The position numbers were made by a program, and so were the translations under genes. Below, piece after piece: positions 53,634 through 60,307 of a stretch of DNA of 64,000 bases. The stretch covers positions 6,297 to 70,296 of IMG/VR virus record IMGVR_UViG_3300010282_000007, one strand, 5' to 3'. This DNA comes from a virus. Its lineage: Duplodnaviria; Caudoviricetes. Every line of letters starts with the position of its first letter. Within the stretch, counting starts at the first letter, position 1. A model generated the notes under the pieces. It did no database searches and was not told the DNA's origin. It saw nothing but the letters and a program-made list of their open reading frames with translations.

Positions 53634-54413
53634 TCAAAATAATTTCGGTTGTTGCAGTTCCTCCTTTACACGCTTGCAAGCAATGTCATAATACTTCTTC
53701 TCCTTTTCAATACAGATAAAATGTCGCTTCTCCCTTATGCAGGCCACGGCGAGGCTTCCACTTCCACAGCAGTTATCTAAAATAGTGTCTTGCTTATCCG
53801 TGTATGTCAGCACAAGGTAGCGAAGCAAGTCAACGGGTTTCTGCGTTGGGTGATACCCCCCCCTGTCACGGTTGAAACGCAGAATGTTTGTCGGGTATCT
53901 TTCGCCTTCGTTTACGGTAACGTGGCCGCATACGCTTGGAGAGCGACTCATCACGGCATACGCTGCATTCCTCTTGTTGCCGTTCTTGCATACATACGGC
54001 TTGCCCTTCGTCTTCTGTGGGTTGTACTTCATTTTTATGCCATTTGGAGAGTACGAAATTCCGCCGTAACTGAACACCGCAATGTCCTCCGTCTTTTTAA
54101 GAGGGCAGTAGTTCGCATTGACAAAGTTCGTCCCCATTTCCTTTTCCCAAATCCAGTTGTATTTCCACATCTTTATGTTTGAGGAAATAAGGTAGGTTGT
54201 GAAAGGCTGTTGGCAGAATAGTACGATTGCGCCGTTTGGCTTGATTATACGGGTGTAAGCGTCCCATAGCGGCTCGAATGGAATGGCGCAGTCCCATTTC
54301 ATTCCGGTAGTGTTGTAGGGAAGGTCGCAGATGATGGCATCAATGCTTTCGTCAGGTATCTCCCGCATCAACTCCAAGCAATCGCCGTGGTGTATCTTGT
54401 CTAACTCAATCAT
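53634..54413 (-). CDS. N4C/N6A DNA methyltransferase, beta class (MTase 2), 259 aa, in-frame G8 tract
   Basis: DLPY, HPTQKP, LDNCCGSG; AGG GGG GGG at 53856-53863. Confidence 0.92.
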   Translation of the reverse strand: MIELDKIHHGDCLELMREIPDESIDAIICDLPYNTTGMKWDCAIPFEPLWDAYTRIIKPNGAIVLFCQQPFTTYLISSNIKMWKYNWIWEKEMGTNFVNANYCPLKKTEDIAVFSYGGISYSPNGIKMKYNPQKTKGKPYVCKNGNKRNAAYAVMSRSPSVCGHVTVNEGERYPTNILRFNRDRGGYHPTQKPVDLLRYLVLTYTDKQDTILDNCCGSGSLAVACIREKRHFICIEKEKKYYDIACKRVKEELQQPKLF

Positions 54414-56835: not shown

Positions 56836-57387
56836 TTAAAACAGCGTAAGTTGAACTGGTTTCCCCTTTTCAATATCCATGTCCTTCTCCACATATAGTT
56901 TTCTGAACATGTGGTACATCGGGGAAACGACAATACTGTTGCCTGCAAGGCGATAGTGTGAACTGTTTGAAAGCGGACTTCCAAGCAGCGTGTTTATGTC
57001 GTTTTCGCCAACATTCATCAGTCTGTAACATTCCCTTGGGGTCAACTTCCTTATCCGCATGGCAACAGGCGTGATGTCCTCGTAGAACTGAATAAGTGCT
57101 TTCCTCTGCCAGTCGAACGGCATTTGCATTTGGTCTTTCACCTTGTCGAGCAGTTCCTTCAGCCTTCCGCTTGGCTTCCATTCGTCGAAAATGGCACAAA
57201 GTCCGCTGACAATCTTGTCGGGTATCTCTGCACGTTCTTCTTTGCTATTTCGCAACTTGTTAAGTTCCGGGAAGACTATCTTGAACACTTTCAGGCATTC
57301 GTCTTGGGTGTGTTCCTTCCCATAAAGTTTTCTGCAAGCACGATAAACCACACGCACTTGCTTATGAAAATCTCTTTTATGTTTCAT
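56836..57387 (-). CDS. C5-cytosine MTase C-terminal part (helical insert plus motifs IX-X), 183 aa
   Basis: RIRKLTPRECYRLM (IX), YRLAGNSIVV (X); ends QLTLF. Confidence 0.9.
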   Translation of the reverse strand: MKHKRDFHKQVRVVYRACRKLYGKEHTQDECLKVFKIVFPELNKLRNSKEERAEIPDKIVSGLCAIFDEWKPSGRLKELLDKVKDQMQMPFDWQRKALIQFYEDITPVAMRIRKLTPRECYRLMNVGENDINTLLGSPLSNSSHYRLAGNSIVVSPMYHMFRKLYVEKDMDIEKGKPVQLTLF

Positions 57388-57529
57388 ATATCTCGATTAT
57401 TGTTGTCATCGTTGCACCATCGGTTCTTAGCAATGTTGCTCCGCCAAACTTGTAGCAACCTGCAAGAATTGTCTTTGAAACTTTTAATTTTTCAGAAGTG
57501 TCGTAGTTGTGGAATTTAATGCGTTTCAT
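57377..57529 (-). CDS. TRD-like mini-ORF M14, 50 aa
   Basis: MKRIKFHNYDTSEKLKVSKTILAGCYKFGGATLLRTDGATMTTIIEIYET. Confidence 0.7.
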   Translation of the reverse strand: MKRIKFHNYDTSEKLKVSKTILAGCYKFGGATLLRTDGATMTTIIEIYET

Positions 57530-57710
57530 AGACTTCTGCGCATAGATTGTCTTTGGTTGCTGCGGTTGTCACAGTACTCATTACCGGACCGACAAGCACA
57601 CCGTATTTCCCTTTGGAGTAAGTCGCTCCTACATCGCCGTATAAGTGCCGTCTAAGCCGTTCTTCTGCGGTTCTCGCCCTTGCCACGCATAGAGCGTTAA
57701 TACGTTTCAT
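57516..57710 (-). CDS. TRD-like mini-ORF M13, 64 aa
   Basis: MKRINALCVARART...PVMSTVTTAATKDNLCAEVYETH. Confidence 0.7.
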   Translation of the reverse strand: MKRINALCVARARTAEERLRRHLYGDVGATYSKGKYGVLVGPVMSTVTTAATKDNLCAEVYETH

Positions 57711-57894
57711 AACAATCAAGGTAAAGCAAATGTGCCATATTTGTTGCTTGAATTGCAGGCGAAACAAAGCGTGTCACTCTTGTTCGCCGTGTGTTGCTAT
57801 TTGGAAATGAATTGTCAAGAATTGTTCCTACCTCCCACAACTGACATCTTCCGTTTGGAAGCCGTATGAGAAAACCTTCCCTCTTATGTTTCAT
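57697..57894 (-). CDS. TRD-like mini-ORF M12, 65 aa
   Basis: ...DNSFPNSNTRRTRVTRFVSPAIQATNMAHLLYLDCYETY; resembles the SYPNSKTRRGRV unit seen in C5-MTase variable regions. Confidence 0.75.
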   Translation of the reverse strand: MKHKREGFLIRLPNGRCQLWEVGTILDNSFPNSNTRRTRVTRFVSPAIQATNMAHLLYLDCYETY

Positions 57895-58039
57895 AAACAC
57901 AAGAAATGTATGAAGAGTTATATCCTGAAACCTTGCTGCAACCACCAAGCGTAGCAGAAATGCCGTCTGTTGAATACAATCGGCCAGCCATCGAACGATG
58001 CTCCCAACCAAATACAAAGCCTATCCTCTTAATCTTCAT
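57884..58039 (-). CDS. TRD-like mini-ORF M11, 51 aa
   Basis: MKIKRIGFVFGWEHRSMAGRLYSTDGISATLGGCSKVSGYNSSYISCVYET. Confidence 0.75.
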   Translation of the reverse strand: MKIKRIGFVFGWEHRSMAGRLYSTDGISATLGGCSKVSGYNSSYISCVYET

Positions 58040-58181
58040 AGACAATCCTTACTATTGGGCGCATAGAGCCGCTATGCGCAGAAGATTCCGTCAAGCAGTT
58101 GCATACTATCATTGGATGGTAATTGCGAATATTCCCCTTTTCGTCCCTTGACCATCCATAAAGCAACAACTTACGTTTCAT
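58029..58181 (-). CDS. TRD-like mini-ORF M10, 50 aa
   Basis: MKRKLLLYGWSRDEKGNIRNYHPMIVCNCLTESSAHSGSMRPIVRIVYED. Confidence 0.7.
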   Translation of the reverse strand: MKRKLLLYGWSRDEKGNIRNYHPMIVCNCLTESSAHSGSMRPIVRIVYED

Positions 58182-58326
58182 ACGCCACCTTTATTCTTGG
58201 CTCAACGCCCGAATGGCAACCAACACTAATGCACGGCGACACTCCCTTTGTGTCAATAACCCATCCGTTTTGCTTGCTACACCAAACATAGCCGACAATT
58301 AATATTTGCGTTGATTTATTTCTCAT
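58171..58326 (-). CDS. TRD-like mini-ORF M9, 51 aa
   Basis: MRNKSTQILIVGYVWCSKQNGWVIDTKGVSPCISVGCHSGVEPRIKVAYET. Confidence 0.75.
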   Translation of the reverse strand: MRNKSTQILIVGYVWCSKQNGWVIDTKGVSPCISVGCHSGVEPRIKVAYET

Positions 58327-58481
58327 AGATGTGAATTGCTCCTGTGGTGCCCCAATCATTAGTGTACTGGAAATTGATGCGGCCTGTCTTGTAATAGTTG
58401 GCTTTGATTGTCCTGCAAGTGCCATCGTTTTTGGTGTTGCAACCAATAAGCCGTATGGGGGGGGGTAGATTTAACGCTCAT
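58316..58481 (-). CDS. TRD-like mini-ORF M8, out of frame at C9 (in frame with C8 or C11)
   Basis: MSVKST-(C9)-IRLIGCNTKNDGTCRTIKANYYKTGRINFQYTNDWGTTGAIHIYEK; 166 nt. Confidence 0.7.
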
Positions 58482-58620
58482 AGATTACTCCAATGAATTG
58501 GTCGGTAGTAAAGCCGCTACCCGTGAACGTATGAATGACATTTGCTATATCCTTTGGATGATAGTTCAATATCTCACCCTTCTTGTTGTCACGGGTGTAG
58601 CCGTAAAGGATCCGTCTCAT
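58471..58620 (-). CDS. TRD-like mini-ORF M7, 49 aa
   Basis: MRRILYGYTRDNKKGEILNYHPKDIANVIHTFTGSGFTTDQFIGVIYER. Confidence 0.7.
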   Translation of the reverse strand: MRRILYGYTRDNKKGEILNYHPKDIANVIHTFTGSGFTTDQFIGVIYER

Positions 58621-58747
58621 ATATCTCAATTACAAGGATGGGGTCTTTGAAATCACGCGCCCTTAACGTAGGAGAATATAACGATGAAATTCTAAACTCG
58701 CCGTATGTGCTACGTGGGTTTGGCAAAACCATTTTCTCATGTCTCAT
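58589..58747 (-). CDS. TRD-like mini-ORF M6, 52 aa
   Basis: MRHEKMVLPNPRSTYGEFRISSLYSPTLRARDFKDPILVIEIYETDPLRLHP. Confidence 0.75.
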   Translation of the reverse strand: MRHEKMVLPNPRSTYGEFRISSLYSPTLRARDFKDPILVIEIYETDPLRLHP

Positions 58748-58910
58748 AAACTTGTGTGACAAATTTGTTGCCATCGTCGTATCTTGCCGTTATCGTGATG
58801 TGCAAGCCGATGTGCCATTGCTGGTTGTAACAGTCAAGGCATATACCGCTAACGAAAGGCACACCGCTTTCAATGAGAGACCTTACCCTCTCACCTCCTT
58901 TAAGTTTCAT
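58737..58910 (-). CDS. TRD-like mini-ORF M5, 57 aa
   Basis: MKLKGGERVRSLIESGVPFVSGICLDCYNQQWHIGLHITITARYDDGNKFVTQVYET. Confidence 0.75.
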   Translation of the reverse strand: MKLKGGERVRSLIESGVPFVSGICLDCYNQQWHIGLHITITARYDDGNKFVTQVYET

Positions 58911-59082
58911 ACGCTTTCGTTACAAAATACATGCAATTTGCGTCTATCCTCGCTTTGATTGTACCTGAAACAGAAATATTGTAGATTTGATTGTACGTGT
59001 CGAGCCATACGCCGCTCTTAAATGGAATGCCGCTTTCAATAAGTGAAGCGAGGCGTTTGCCTCCTGTTGGTTTATTCTTCAT
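58900..59082 (-). CDS. TRD-like mini-ORF M4, 60 aa
   Basis: MKNKPTGGKRLASLIESGIPFKSGVWLDTYNQIYNISVSGTIKARIDANCMYFVTKAYET. Confidence 0.75.
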   Translation of the reverse strand: MKNKPTGGKRLASLIESGIPFKSGVWLDTYNQIYNISVSGTIKARIDANCMYFVTKAYET

Positions 59083-59239
59083 ACAACAATGCTATTTTAG
59101 GCGAGTTGCAACTTCCAACACCTCTTCCACGAATGCCCTGCCCTGACCTCAATGTTGGCGATAGGCCATCTGGTGAGAAAACGTCACCATTTTGGCCATC
59201 GCTTGGGAATACATTGCCCAAACGGATAATTCTACACAT
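59072..59239 (-). CDS. TRD-like mini-ORF M3, 55 aa
   Basis: MCRIIRLGNVFPSDGQNGDVFSPDGLSPTLRSGQGIRGRGVGSCNSPKIALLYEE; TAATG overlap start. Confidence 0.75.
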   Translation of the reverse strand: MCRIIRLGNVFPSDGQNGDVFSPDGLSPTLRSGQGIRGRGVGSCNSPKIALLYEE

Positions 59240-59408
59240 TATGTTTCATAGACAACCCCGATACCCATCTTCGGATAATGCGCTACGCTTATCAAATTTG
59301 CCGCTCCGATTACCTCGTAAACGGCGGTGATTGTCGGAGCAAGGCCGTCTTTTGTAACTGGCAGTCCTATAAGTCGTTGAGGGGGGGGGGCAGCTTACGT
59401 TGTTTCAT
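59239..59408 (-). CDS. TRD-like mini-ORF M2, out of frame at C10 (in frame with C8 or C11)
   Basis: MKQRKL-(C10)-QRLIGLPVTKDGLAPTITAVYEVIGAANLISVAHYPKMGIGVVYET; 170 nt. Confidence 0.7.
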
Positions 59409-59418
59409 AAATATAGCA

Positions 59419-59559
59419 CTATGCGCTTTTAGGGTAATGGCGAAGAGTGATGTAGTCCCTTATCGCAGCATCTTCGTATCGCGTGTTCAAAGTGCAAGCA
59501 ATACCACCCGAACAAACATTCTGCGGAACAATCCTACTGGGCAACAAAGAAGTTCTCAA
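59419..59559 (-). CDS. TRD-like mini-ORF M1, 46 aa (TTG start; TAG four codons before the expected YET)
   Basis: MRTSLLPSRIVPQNVCSGGIACTLNTRYEDAAIRDYITLRHYPKSA*CYIYETT*. Confidence 0.55.
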   Translation of the reverse strand: MRTSLLPSRIVPQNVCSGGIACTLNTRYEDAAIRDYITLRHYPKSA

Positions 59560-60307
59560 AATCCTCTTCGTCTTCTTCGTCAAAATCATTCTCTGAAGAT
59601 GCAGACCTCCCATCTTCCTCAATGCTCTTTTCGCAAAACCTTGCAAGCATTTCGTCGGACAAGAAATACTTTTCGTCAACTTCCTCTTCCAAAACATCAT
59701 TCAAACAAAGTTCCAACGGCATTTTCTTTGGGAAGAAATATCTTGGGTTTTGTTCGTCTTCAGTTATGAGAATGGAAATCATGTATATCCGTTCTCTATT
59801 TTGAGGAACGTTGAAATCAGAGGCATTCAGTACCTGGGCAAAATTTACATATCCGAAACCCTCAAGCCGCCTTTGCCAGGCGTTAAAACCTTTGATGAAC
59901 TTTTGCTGAACAAGTCCTTTTACATTCTCAAAGAAGACGTACTTAGGACGCTTTAACTCTATGGCTCTCGAACACTCCCATAAGAGCGAAGAACGCGTTC
60001 CGCTACCCTCTTCTCCACCACGCTGGAGGCCAGCATTGCTGAAGTCCTGGCAGGGCGAACTCATTGTAAAAAAGTCAAAATCAGGAACTTTGCCCCAATC
60101 AATCTTGCTGATGTCACCATAGTTTTCAACGTCACCATGTAACGCTTTGTAAGCGGTAATCGCACTTGGGTCAATCTCGCTGAAGCCAATCAATTTGTAG
60201 TCAAATTCAGGAAAGTCGCGTTTCAGCCTCTCCAAAGCAAGGCTTTGACTGCCATAGCCAGCAAAAGCCTCAAATACCCTTAATGGATTGTTTTTGTCGT
60301 ATTTCAT
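59534..60307 (-). CDS. C5-cytosine MTase catalytic N-terminal part (motifs I-VIII), 257 aa
   Basis: FAGYG (I), SSPCQDFS (IV), ENVKGL (VI), VPQNRERIY (VIII). Ends in an acidic tail with no TRD or motifs IX-X. Confidence 0.92.
   Translation of the reverse strand: MKYDKNNPLRVFEAFAGYGSQSLALERLKRDFPEFDYKLIGFSEIDPSAITAYKALHGDVENYGDISKIDWGKVPDFDFFTMSSPCQDFSNAGLQRGGEEGSGTRSSLLWECSRAIELKRPKYVFFENVKGLVQQKFIKGFNAWQRRLEGFGYVNFAQVLNASDFNVPQNRERIYMISILITEDEQNPRYFFPKKMPLELCLNDVLEEEVDEKYFLSDEMLARFCEKSIEEDGRSASSENDFDEEDEEDFENFFVAQ

Follow-up and report, generated by a model that had tools for sequence, protein, structure and literature searches.

Organization of the split methyltransferase locus

The window, a stretch of 64,000 nucleotides of phage DNA, carries on its minus strand (the strand to which all coordinates of this locus refer) an N-half C5 DNA methyltransferase with motifs I-VIII (60307-59534), followed by 14 TRD-sized modules, M1 to M14, and a C-half with motifs IX-X (57387-56836). 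The first-pass annotation had placed the two groups of motifs on separate ORFs with TRD modules between them, and this split was confirmed, the PF00145 match being divided between the halves. The phage is roughly 100 kb in size and of gut or rumen type. The features are as follows.

59534..60307, minus strand: N-half C5 DNA methyltransferase, 257 aa; PF00145 positions 2-214 of 324, E 1e-50
59395..59589, minus strand: M1, first TRD module, ACTLNTRYE type; +1 frame overlapping the N-half tail
59239..59408, minus strand: M2, TRD module, APTITAVYE type; C10 tract (59381-59390) between the ATG (59408) and the TRD frame
59072..59239, minus strand: M3, TRD mini-ORF, 55 aa, SPTL type; start overlaps the M2 stop as TAATG
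59082-58900, minus strand: M4, TRD mini-ORF, 60 aa; joined to M5 by a T-ATG-AA overlap
58910-58737, minus strand: M5, TRD mini-ORF, 57 aa; M4 paralogue, 54 % identical
58747-58589, minus strand: M6, TRD mini-ORF, 52 aa, SPTL; tail extends 32 nt beyond the M7 ATG
58620-58471, minus strand: M7, TRD mini-ORF, 49 aa; ATG inside the M6 3' end
58316..58481, minus strand: M8, TRD module, CRTIKANYY type; C9 tract (58457-58465) after the ATG (58481)
57377..58326, minus strand: M9-M14, six intact ATG-started TRD mini-ORFs (51, 50, 51, 65, 64 and 50 aa)
56836..57387, minus strand: C-half, 183 aa; PF00145 positions 269-322, E 1e-4

The sequence TATGAR occurs 14 times between 59409 and 57388, at a spacing of 127-184 nt. 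As had been described, the +1-frame ATG within TAT-GAR (T-ATG-AR) starts the next module or the C-half at 13 of the 15 junctions, the M2-M3 junction being TAATG (59239) and the N-half/M1 junction TTT GAG; every start of M9-M14 sits within the TAT-GAR at the end of the preceding module. The junction tyrosine codon is TAT in 14 of 14 cases, compared with 42 % of the tyrosine codons in long ORFs elsewhere in the window, and this, together with the recurrence of the architecture in independent contigs, excludes a chance origin of the pattern. The modules generally end, as first noted, in hydrophobic-x-hydrophobic-Y-E followed by one or two residues and a stop, with the exception of M6, which ends in YETDPLRLHP.

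Fourteen mini-ORFs had been counted, and 14 TRD-sized modules are present, but only 11 (M3-M7 and M9-M14) are intact from ATG to stop, with lengths of 49-65 aa; in this genome as sequenced M1, M2 and M8 are off. The M1 junction lacks an ATG and the start of the module is uncertain, the nearest in-frame ATG (59589) lying within the N-half tail; an in-frame TAG (59421-59419), seven codons ahead of the YETT end, leaves a remnant CYIYETT and stop. The close relative L201 has TGG at the site of this TAG. The sequenced tracts leave M2 and M8 out of frame with their ATGs; a length of C8 or C11 would put either module in frame.

The N-half contains the motif matches FAGYGS, SSPCQDFS, ENVKGL and QNRERIY and, after motif VIII, an acidic tail with a DFENFFVAQ end and a TAG stop. 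A profile of its homologs matches M.MpeI, M.HhaI and M.HaeIII among PDB sequences. Homologs number 5698 at E<=1e-30, and among the best 120 of these almost every protein consists of an N-half alone, 226-305 aa long, and has the same tail at its C terminus. The C-half consists of an all-helical N-terminal domain of about 100 aa ending in LIQFYED, motif IX (RIRKLTPRE), motif X (AGNSIVV) and a C-terminal QLTLF; with 569 homologs of a typical size of 181 aa it is a conserved stand-alone protein. The FYED repeat reported before motif IX is thus present, but what precedes it is the conserved helical domain and no TRD. This domain has 19 invariant positions among 46 sequences and is kept at the C-half start in 10 of 11 arrays; its AlphaFold2 model consists of helices only (pLDDT 75.5), and a PDB search gave no match to its fold. 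A TRD is encoded in neither half. The N-half and the helical-domain C-half could form a complete enzyme for which the peptides are dispensable.

A profile of the M9 family matched mostly proteins of 46-110 aa, together with four to eight tandem modules in long PF00145 proteins, e.g. P0288 (543 aa: N-domain, five TRDs, motifs IX-X). M3 (residues 7-51) shares 73 % identity with residues 228-272 of the complete single-chain C5 methyltransferase P0366 (411 aa), and no homologs of M3 were found in the 11 other arrays. In every array the modules are placed between motifs VIII and IX, the exact site of the variable region. Judged by this homology to single-chain and multispecific enzymes, the modules are true TRDs. 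A model of an isolated TRD is mostly coil (pLDDT 74), which fits folding on a partner and equally a poor model.

Related arrays, cassette differences and selection

A search of phages for loci of this type recovered the same N-half, mini-ORFs joined by YE-x-stop/ATG(+1), and C-half in ten further contigs (L197, L199, L200, L201, L205-L210), in which the modules number 8-18 per array and N-half identity is 58-72 %, and a second clade (L002-L080) with two to six modules joined via ATGA (80 junctions) or TAATG (48 junctions). Over 90 independent contigs from the two clades are broken at the same module boundaries; the relatives are not single continuous ORFs interrupted by random indels, the split being kept with an ATG at almost every module. 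Homologs of M1 occur in 10 of the 11 arrays, mostly in first position, those of M4 in nine, the M9 family in eight and the M13 family in ten.

The differences between the window and L201 are whole cassettes bounded by junctions: M5 is missing from L201 exactly from junction to junction, as are M9 and M12, which fits the earlier suggestion that recombination between junctions alters module content without restoring frame. The same cassette may be free or fused. In L201, M14 forms one reading frame with the C-half, and L035 carries the first cassette as part of the N-half where L015 has it free. In the second clade motifs IX-X invariably share an ORF with the last cassette, and the N-half sometimes shares one with the first. 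Tract length also varies: the M2-type tract ranges from C6 to C10 across six arrays and is out of frame with the ATG in five of them, L200 (C8) being in frame and the near-identical L207 (C6) out of frame. The counterpart of M8 in L201 is in frame with a GTG start.

The ten modules shared by the window and L201 differ at 100 synonymous and 40 non-synonymous sites (pN/pS 0.118), and the other two frames give pN/pS of 2.0 and 2.4. The disrupted modules are likewise constrained against L201 (M1, 0.21; M2, 0.04, with 17 synonymous and two non-synonymous differences; M8, 0.16). A free 53-aa cassette of the second clade (48 distinct sequences) has a pN/pS of 0.068, and the free cassettes as a class (0.07-0.12) are as low as, or below, the expressed halves. 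Strong purifying selection (pN/pS 0.12 and 0.07), and not neutral change, was therefore found in both clades.

An ATG in the downstream frame lies within -20 to +15 nt of the stop at 79 of the 93 clean junctions, compared with 22 of 93 for the control frame. It is retained via three alternative sequence solutions: where the TAT is lost (L201, TAC-GAG-ACA-TGA; L199, TAC) the start is an ATG that overlaps the TGA stop, and at VIET-type ends it is an ATG immediately beyond the stop. Before M6, where L201 has TAC as the junction tyrosine codon, the ATG overlapping TGA and a 1-nt indel retain an ATG-started ORF. The M1 junction ATG is absent in several arrays (L205, L206), so independent initiation is not obvious for every module. 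No conserved slippery site was found at the junctions: the codon ahead of the stop is of 22 different kinds, and the stop itself may be TAA, TGA or TAG. Across the 11 arrays 108 of the 132 frame changes are +1.

Proposed mechanism and alternative explanations

The layout may be understood, with slightly better than even odds, as a multispecific C5 DNA methyltransferase whose gene has been divided into separate parts. On the sequence evidence our main reading, given a probability of about 0.55, is that the TRDs are made as translationally coupled microproteins, which supply in trans what a split catalytic core lacks, with cassettes gained and lost at junctions and homopolymers serving as switches. 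A single minus-strand transcript would encode the N-half (AdoMet binding and catalysis), the 14 TRD cassettes and the C-half (helical domain and motifs IX-X). Because the ATG of each cassette lies 8-11 nt before the stop of its predecessor, separate peptides of 49-65 residues are proposed, made by termination-reinitiation or direct initiation. The two halves would associate into a catalytic core without a recognition domain, as the chains of M.AquI do, and one TRD peptide at a time would complete the small domain beside motif IX and set the sequence that is methylated. The phage genome could thereby gain many 5mC patterns from one core and be shielded from many restriction enzymes of its hosts. 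At the short junction repeat, recombination would add or remove whole cassettes, C or G tracts behind certain cassette starts (here M2 and M8) may act as reversible on/off switches, and point mutations such as the M1 TAG would disable further cassettes. Several observations weigh against this reading: three of the 14 modules are off here, M2-type tracts are out of frame in five of six arrays, the M1 junction lacks an ATG in several arrays, an isolated TRD is modelled mostly as coil, the N-half and the helical-domain C-half could suffice as an enzyme, and distal splits of M.SssI complemented poorly or not at all.

Degeneration of a multispecific methyltransferase gene, with frameshifts tolerated or introduced by sequencing errors, would account for the M1 nonsense codon and for the M2 and M8 frameshifts, which lie at homopolymers, common sites of sequencing error. 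It is extremely improbable: the same module-boundary breaks recur across both clades, every module retains an open frame of its own, the other frames give a pN/pS of at least 2 against 0.12 in the coding frame, M2 and M8 with their tracts included, and thousands of N-half-only proteins share the conserved tail end. Decay or an assembly artefact was rejected, being contradicted by the pN/pS values of 0.068 and 0.118 and by the ATG at 79 of 93 junctions. The first-pass annotation had itself offered serial +1 recoding beside exchangeable microproteins. A +1 shift, or reinitiation without release, at each junction would join the N-half, some or all TRDs and the C-half into a single long multispecific chain or a few of them, like the enzymes of Bacillus phages, and would agree with the excess of +1 frame changes, with stops just two to three codons beyond the conserved YE, with the M1 frame that overlaps the upstream stop and in some arrays lacks a junction ATG, and with the fused single-chain relatives carrying four to eight TRDs among the matches. 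We consider it rather improbable, since the codons before the stops are not conserved, the second clade shifts frame by -1 via ATGA or TAATG, hardly any full-length product would result from fifteen shifts in series, and recoding needs no ATG, yet the ATG is conserved and replaced by another when lost.

It is unlikely, but somewhat less so, that only the halves and a fused module work and that the free cassettes are mostly a silent store, comparable to silent pilin or vls cassettes and brought into play through recombination, fusion or tract slippage. Such a store would explain why close relatives differ by whole cassettes, why cassettes are fused at the ends of the second-clade arrays and to the C-half in L201, and why many are out of frame at homopolymer tracts. 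The window's clade, however, has no TRD fused beside motif IX and lacks a cassette expression site, because in all but one of the 11 arrays the C-half starts with the conserved helical domain. By sequence logic, recombination at the junction repeat regenerates the stop/start overlap and never a fusion. Nor does a silent store need an ATG for each cassette, kept here by three solutions, and the pN/pS of free cassettes is no higher than that of the expressed halves. Selection and start codons indicate that the peptides matter without indicating their role, and the mini-proteins might be made for another function, e.g. as decoys for host restriction or methylation-dependent enzymes or as regulators of the core enzyme, with which the little predicted structure of an isolated module would be compatible. 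The homology of the modules to TRDs within working single-chain enzymes (M3 at 73 %, and the tandem TRDs), their position at the variable-region site in every array and the lack of a TRD in either half make this a poor candidate, about as improbable as recoding.

The evidence thus favours exchangeable, coupled microproteins over recoding. The first-pass interpretation is supported only in part, because three of its 14 modules are not intact ORFs, the poly-C tracts, the TAG and the conserved helical domain of the C-half having gone unmentioned, and because separate peptides, three-part assembly and activity are what we infer from the sequence. Conservation of this layout, and selection on it, in many uncultured phages make it probable that a single core draws on many exchangeable specificities and so escapes host restriction.

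Comparison with known systems

No published description of this layout was found in the literature. The multispecific C5 methyltransferases of temperate Bacillus phages (M.SPRI, M.Phi3TI, M.Rho11sI and M.H2I) are reportedly the work of the Trautner laboratory (e.g. Trautner et al. 1996, EMBO J 15:1434, cited as reference 31 in PMC12707154). In them several tandem TRDs, each about 40-60 residues long with a T(L/I/V)-type core, lie between motifs VIII and IX of one catalytic framework; the enzymes are phage-borne and presumably anti-restriction. These features are shared with the present locus, and P0288, matched by the window's TRD profile, is a single chain of this type. Here, in contrast, each TRD is an ORF with its own ATG and stop, the framework is split in two, the modules number up to 14 (18 in relatives) instead of three to five, and a helical domain in the C-half, a conserved acidic tail in the N-half and homopolymer switches in some modules are added.

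M.AquI and M.EcoHK31I are two-chain C5 methyltransferases, and fragments of monomeric C5 enzymes complement one another (PMC3404938). In both, as here, motifs I-VIII and IX-X are on separate associating chains with a natural break in the variable region. In M.AquI the variable region is shared by both chains and in M.EcoHK31I the TRD is on the large chain; both enzymes lack a free TRD and have a single specificity, whereas the present layout requires a second break, between TRD and motif IX. Distal variable-region splits of M.SssI complemented poorly or not at all (PMC3404938), so that tolerance of such a break is not known.

In type I restriction-modification systems hsdM and hsdS overlap and are translationally coupled (PMC3510504), and the likeness, which includes phase-variable hsdS loci, extends to a constant catalytic part, a separately encoded, exchangeable specificity subunit and a repertoire changed by recombination. 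The family is unrelated (amino-methyltransferases) and no homology is implied; HsdS has about 400-450 aa with two TRDs and varies by inversion between hsdS copies, whereas here there is a row of 50-aa genes. In phasevarion mod genes repeat tracts in the coding sequence put the specificity part in or out of frame, and the tract-length difference between the near-identical L200 (C8) and L207 (C6) is of this kind. Phasevarions switch a whole bacterial enzyme and alter host gene expression, whereas here a switch would act on single phage specificity modules, with the core and the other modules staying on.

The two halves of the split methyltransferase

The IMG/VR record is 70.3 kb in length and an estimated 67 % complete, and related contigs are of 100-110 kb. 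On the minus strand, the locus lies between a primase-helicase gene and a block with a DUF4494 gene, a dUTPase gene and five amino-methyltransferase genes, flanks that were read off the Pfam-annotated close relative L201. The features of the locus and its surroundings are:

60307-59534, minus strand: N-half, 257 aa, PF00145 positions 2-214 (E 1e-50)
Between the halves, minus strand: modules M3-M7 and M9-M14 (11 modules), intact ATG-to-stop ORFs of 49-65 aa
57387-56836, minus strand: C-half, 183 aa, PF00145 positions 269-322 (motifs IX and X; E 1e-4, 22 bits)
53856-53863: third G/C run of at least 8 nt, neighbouring amino-methyltransferase gene block

Motifs I, IV, VI and VIII of the N-half read FAGYGS, SSPCQDFS, ENVKGL and QNRERIY, so that the catalytic Pro-Cys (motif IV), ENV (motif VI) and QxRxR (motif VIII) of a PF00145 motif I-VIII region are present, and its profile matched the PDB sequences of M.MpeI and M.HhaI. 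The C-half score of 22 bits is exactly the curated PF00145 cut-off, and its RIRKLTPRE and GNS, corresponding to motifs IX and X, are invariant in 46 homologs. PF00145 enzymes are usually single polypeptides; here stop codons part the N-half, each module and the C-half, in the window and its relatives. The N-half stops in an acidic tail ahead of any TRD, and the C-half, which opens with a helical domain, likewise lacks a TRD. Searching with the N-half returned 5698 proteins at E<=1e-30, and the best 120 of these, nearly all 226-305 aa long, share the acidic tail (consensus DFENFFVAQ), which indicates that the proteins end there naturally and were not cut off by contig breaks.

Homologs of the C-half number 569 and are typically of 181 aa, and their N-terminal 100 residues are conserved at least as strongly as the methyltransferase motifs. 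This domain was modelled as all-helical (pLDDT 75.5); Foldseek gave no match of the C-half model to the PDB at E<=0.001, a protein-atlas search returned its own cluster and weak unrelated folds only, and PHROGs contained no match for the helical domain or for six of the mini-ORFs. At the DNA level, no GenBank phage matched the region. The C-half ends in QLTLF (window 56836-56853), which resembles sliding-clamp-binding peptides and in which Q179, L180 and L182 vary hardly or not at all across the 46 homologs.

Modules and junctions between the halves

The gap between the halves is about 2.1 kb and contains TATGAR 14 times at spacings of 127-184 nt, and in 13 of these the ATG inside the hexamer is the start of the next ORF, which runs in the +1 frame and begins 8-11 nt ahead of the preceding stop. 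The ORFs and junction sequences bear out the layout proposed in the first-pass annotation, namely an N-half, a row of modules and a C-half with TAT-GAR/+1 ATG at 13 junctions. The 14 mini-ORFs counted there are all present as TRD-homologous modules, but M1, M2 and M8 are not intact, leaving 11 that are. M1 overlaps the N-half tail, lacks a junction ATG and is cut by a TAG seven codons ahead of its normal YETT end, while a C10 tract in M2 and a C9 tract in M8 part the TRD frame from the ATG, the two being in frame at C8 or C11. The FYED noted earlier as repeated in the C-half before motif IX is found there, but what precedes it is the conserved helical domain and not a TRD. All 14 junctions of the window have TAT as the junction Tyr codon, as do 69 canonical junctions in total; in the long genes of the window, TAT accounts for only 42 % of Tyr codons.

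In the M1/N-half tail overlap (window 59534-59589) both frames are conserved, one encoding DFENFFVAQ and the other ILRTSLLPSRI, and in L206, another array of the same clade, the same M1 +1 peptide, with other Ser and Arg codons, overlaps another upstream module end. From these sequences, M1 translation seems to start upstream of the stop, though some arrays have no nearby ATG. Scans for sigma-70 promoters and terminators within the array gave the same result as shuffled sequence. Stop-codon reassignment, prompted by the TAG codons within the M1 frame and at the end of the N-half, was rejected because the window has no tRNA genes, all three stops are used by long ORFs, L201 has TGG at the M1 site, and reading through the N-half TAG does not extend the protein sensibly.

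Over 45 residues, M3 shares 73 % identity with P0366 (residues 228-272), a complete single-chain enzyme of 411 aa whose sequence spans the whole PF00145 profile. A profile of the M9 family, run against 1.84 billion representative proteins, matched 119 proteins, most of them of 46-110 aa and so products of similar mini-genes, and about thirty are long PF00145 proteins with 4-8 matches in tandem. One of these long proteins, P0288 (543 aa), carries a catalytic domain, then five consecutive TRDs, then motifs IX-X, the classical layout of a single-chain multispecific methyltransferase. On the M3/P0366 identity and the tandem matches, the mini-ORFs are homologs of TRD modules that elsewhere sit within one chain. 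Searches of M3 and M11 against PDB sequences with phmmer gave nothing meaningful, the queries being too short. An M9-family module modelled alone was mostly coil (pLDDT 74) and had no Foldseek match in the PDB, and when a complex of N-half, C-half and an M13-family module was predicted, one control, with a replaced N-half, came within 0.20 of the score of the real complex, and the prediction speaks neither for nor against binding. The most conserved cassette family, M13 (window 57519-57710; alignment A3), begins R-T-x-x-E-x-x-R-R-x-x-x-G-D, resembling motif IX (R-x-L-T-x-x-E-x-x-R-L-x-G-F-x-D) as if from a partial duplication of the C-half region.

Selection, spread and turnover of the arrays

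The search for further loci of this kind suggested in the first-pass annotation was productive. The same layout was found in ten further contigs (L197, L199, L200, L201 and L205-L210), each with an N-half, 8-18 mini-ORFs ending in YE-x(-x)-stop with the next ATG in TAT-GAR, and a C-half. A second clade of 79 IMG/VR loci (L002-L080) has N-halves about 58 % identical to that of the window, 2-6 modules with the last one fused to motifs IX-X, and junctions of the form ATGA (80 times) or TAATG (48 times); L001 carries window-type YET/ATG junctions and was left out of this clade. The relatives are thus not one continuous ORF with random indels, the split being kept in both clades. Since two unrelated junction sequences both keep the stop/start overlap, they point to separate translation, and not one special recoding signal, as the conserved property. 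A pattern scan of IMG/VR for three spaced TATGAAAC junctions gave at least 115 matches, nearly all by chance and with no close relative among them.

L201 is syntenic with the window, its C-half being 83 % identical and the shared segments 82-96 % identical in DNA. The ten modules shared by the two differ at 100 synonymous and 40 non-synonymous positions (pN/pS 0.118), and pN/pS rises to 2.0 and 2.4 when those columns are read in the two remaining frames. The values for the tract-bearing modules, 0.04 for M2 and 0.16 for M8, indicate that these are not decaying. The second clade contains a free 53-aa cassette with 48 distinct nucleotide versions and pN/pS 0.068, and the final ORF of that clade, in which the last cassette is fused to motifs IX-X, gave 0.14, above the value of the free cassette. 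Purifying selection on the modules was therefore found in both clades, and the neutral dN/dS considered at the outset was not seen.

Module content varies between arrays. Alignment blocks between the window and L201 break at junctions, and L201 lacks M3, M5, M9 and M12 and carries one module absent from the window. Families M1, M2, M4, M7, M9 and M13 are present in 8-10 of the 11 arrays (the window and its ten relatives), and M3 and M12 only in the window. M14 of L201 is joined to the C-half via a 17-residue linker, and the first cassette of the second clade is fused to the N-half in L035 and free in L015. Runs of 6-10 G or C are common in the arrays (L197 has eight, L205 six), and all three of the runs of at least 8 nt that occur in the 64-kb window fall within the methylation gene block. 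The C10 and C9 tracts are simple repeats near a start that set the frame, as in phase-variable genes. The M2-site run in six arrays is C6, C7, C8, C8, C8 and C10, where, as in any homopolymer, assembly error is possible, and the near-identical L200 and L207 differ there by two C, L200 being in frame and L207 out.

Several relatives carry further rearrangements. N-half codons 1-69 lie on the opposite strand, adjoining codons 66-236, in L208:4403-4685, L210:4875-5115 and L206:4779-5030; inverted repeats of 23-26 nt, 88-91 % complementary, lie on either side of the segment, with the inner arm within the conserved GDITKI codons, and the window has no such repeat. The arrangement resembles an invertible switch that turns the whole enzyme on and off, in the off orientation in all three. 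The N-half of L201 (2747-4522) is 591 aa long owing to an insertion of about 1 kb, with Hint-type intein domains (Pfam), at the point matching window 60060/60052; a similar insertion is present in L205:4047-5942, and the window gene is uninterrupted. In the second clade, an HNH-type endonuclease ORF of about 125 aa lies between two TRD cassettes in L028:6857-7231, L065:6837-7229 and four more loci, and ends in a cassette-like LIIKR junction peptide, as if inserted at and copying a junction. The N-half of another second-clade member, L013:5935-6951, runs in frame straight to motifs IX-X without any TRD (339 aa), apparently because the entire array was deleted between short stretches of similar sequence.

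Assembly of the enzyme and comparison with known systems

The reading preferred here, at a probability of roughly 55 %, is that the operon yields the N-half, separately initiated TRD peptides and the C-half, the halves forming a core that a TRD peptide completes. The two halves would associate as a recognition-less core, like the two chains of M.AquI (PMC3404938), and a single TRD peptide at any one time would fill out the small domain next to motif IX. Two conserved features that single-chain relatives such as P0288 lack, the all-helical C-half domain and the acidic DFENFFVAQ tail of the N-half, are for that reason candidate docking sites for the free TRD peptide, and may together form its docking surface. 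A weak point of trans assembly is the unclear start of M1. It also counts against such assembly that M.SssI fragments engineered with the split in the distal part of the variable region showed poor complementation (PMC3404938).

The alternative raised in the first-pass annotation, serial +1 recoding at UAU-GAR, agrees with the prevailing +1 direction of the frame changes but is improbable. Programmed +1 frameshifting has a conserved shift-prone P-site codon and needs no start codon, whereas the codon ahead of the stop takes 22 different forms, TAA, TGA and TAG are all in use, and the junctions show neither a site prone to shifting nor one particular stop codon that is reassigned; the second-clade junctions, moreover, are -1. 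The ATGs are conserved: a downstream-frame ATG lies within -20 to +15 nt of the upstream stop at 79 of 93 junctions and in the control frame at 22 of 93 (the 11 arrays minus junctions next to homopolymers), and most junctions without one have longer overlaps. Where the ATG is lost it is replaced. A junction of L201 that has lost TAT reads TAC-GAG-ACA-TGA, giving an ATG that overlaps TGA, with a downstream 1-nt indel restoring the frame; ATGA is used likewise at a TAC junction of L199, and after VIET-ending modules the ATG lies just beyond the stop.

Cassette turnover and the fused variants would suit a silent cassette archive, which is nonetheless doubtful, because neither half in the clade of the window has a TRD position to move into, recombination at junctions only remakes the overlap, and a silent store does not need start codons. 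That the peptides are made and serve some role other than recognition is hardly likely either, given their TRD homology and position, and decay or sequencing error, contradicted by selection and recurrence, is barely credible.

If the separately initiated peptides do act in trans, large gut and rumen phages could cover many host restriction systems via one small operon, and could avoid methylation-dependent nucleases by turning single modules off; such a switch would be sensible if some 5mC motifs expose the phage to these nucleases. The arrays would also be a natural library for a TRD-to-motif code, with 50-residue peptides set against one constant core, and could open a way to programmable 5mC writers. 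Metagenomes contain thousands of N-half-only homologs of this large family, whose 50-aa genes are mostly missed by annotation pipelines. The fuller proposal, a three-part C5 methyltransferase in which a free, little-structured peptide of about 50 residues docks on a split core and alone sets the target, with up to 18 plug-in, individually phase-variable peptides, is tentative and falls a little short of an even chance. Such an architecture would surprise restriction-modification specialists. In line with the initial remark that no described equivalent was known, no account of free-standing TRD genes was found in the literature searched, the coverage of which was incomplete and is not proof of absence.

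Among the nearest described systems are the multispecific C5 methyltransferases of Bacillus phages (SPR type; Trautner et al. 1996, reference 31 of PMC12707154). The locus shares with these several tandem TRDs between motifs VIII and IX, with its 14 TRD-homologous modules, and differs in that the modules are not encoded as a covalent part of the enzyme chain, each having its own start and stop. The other nearest systems are the two-chain C5 enzymes M.AquI and M.EcoHK31I (PMC3404938). As in the M.AquI type, motifs I-VIII and IX-X are on two polypeptides from neighbouring genes, but in that type the variable region (TRD) belongs to the two chains, which is not so in the window locus. A separate, exchangeable recognition subunit is, to our knowledge, known for Type I systems and not for C5 methyltransferases. 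A separate specificity subunit follows the logic of Type I systems, and if the modules act in trans, this would be the first C5 methyltransferase with recognition as a separate, exchangeable subunit.
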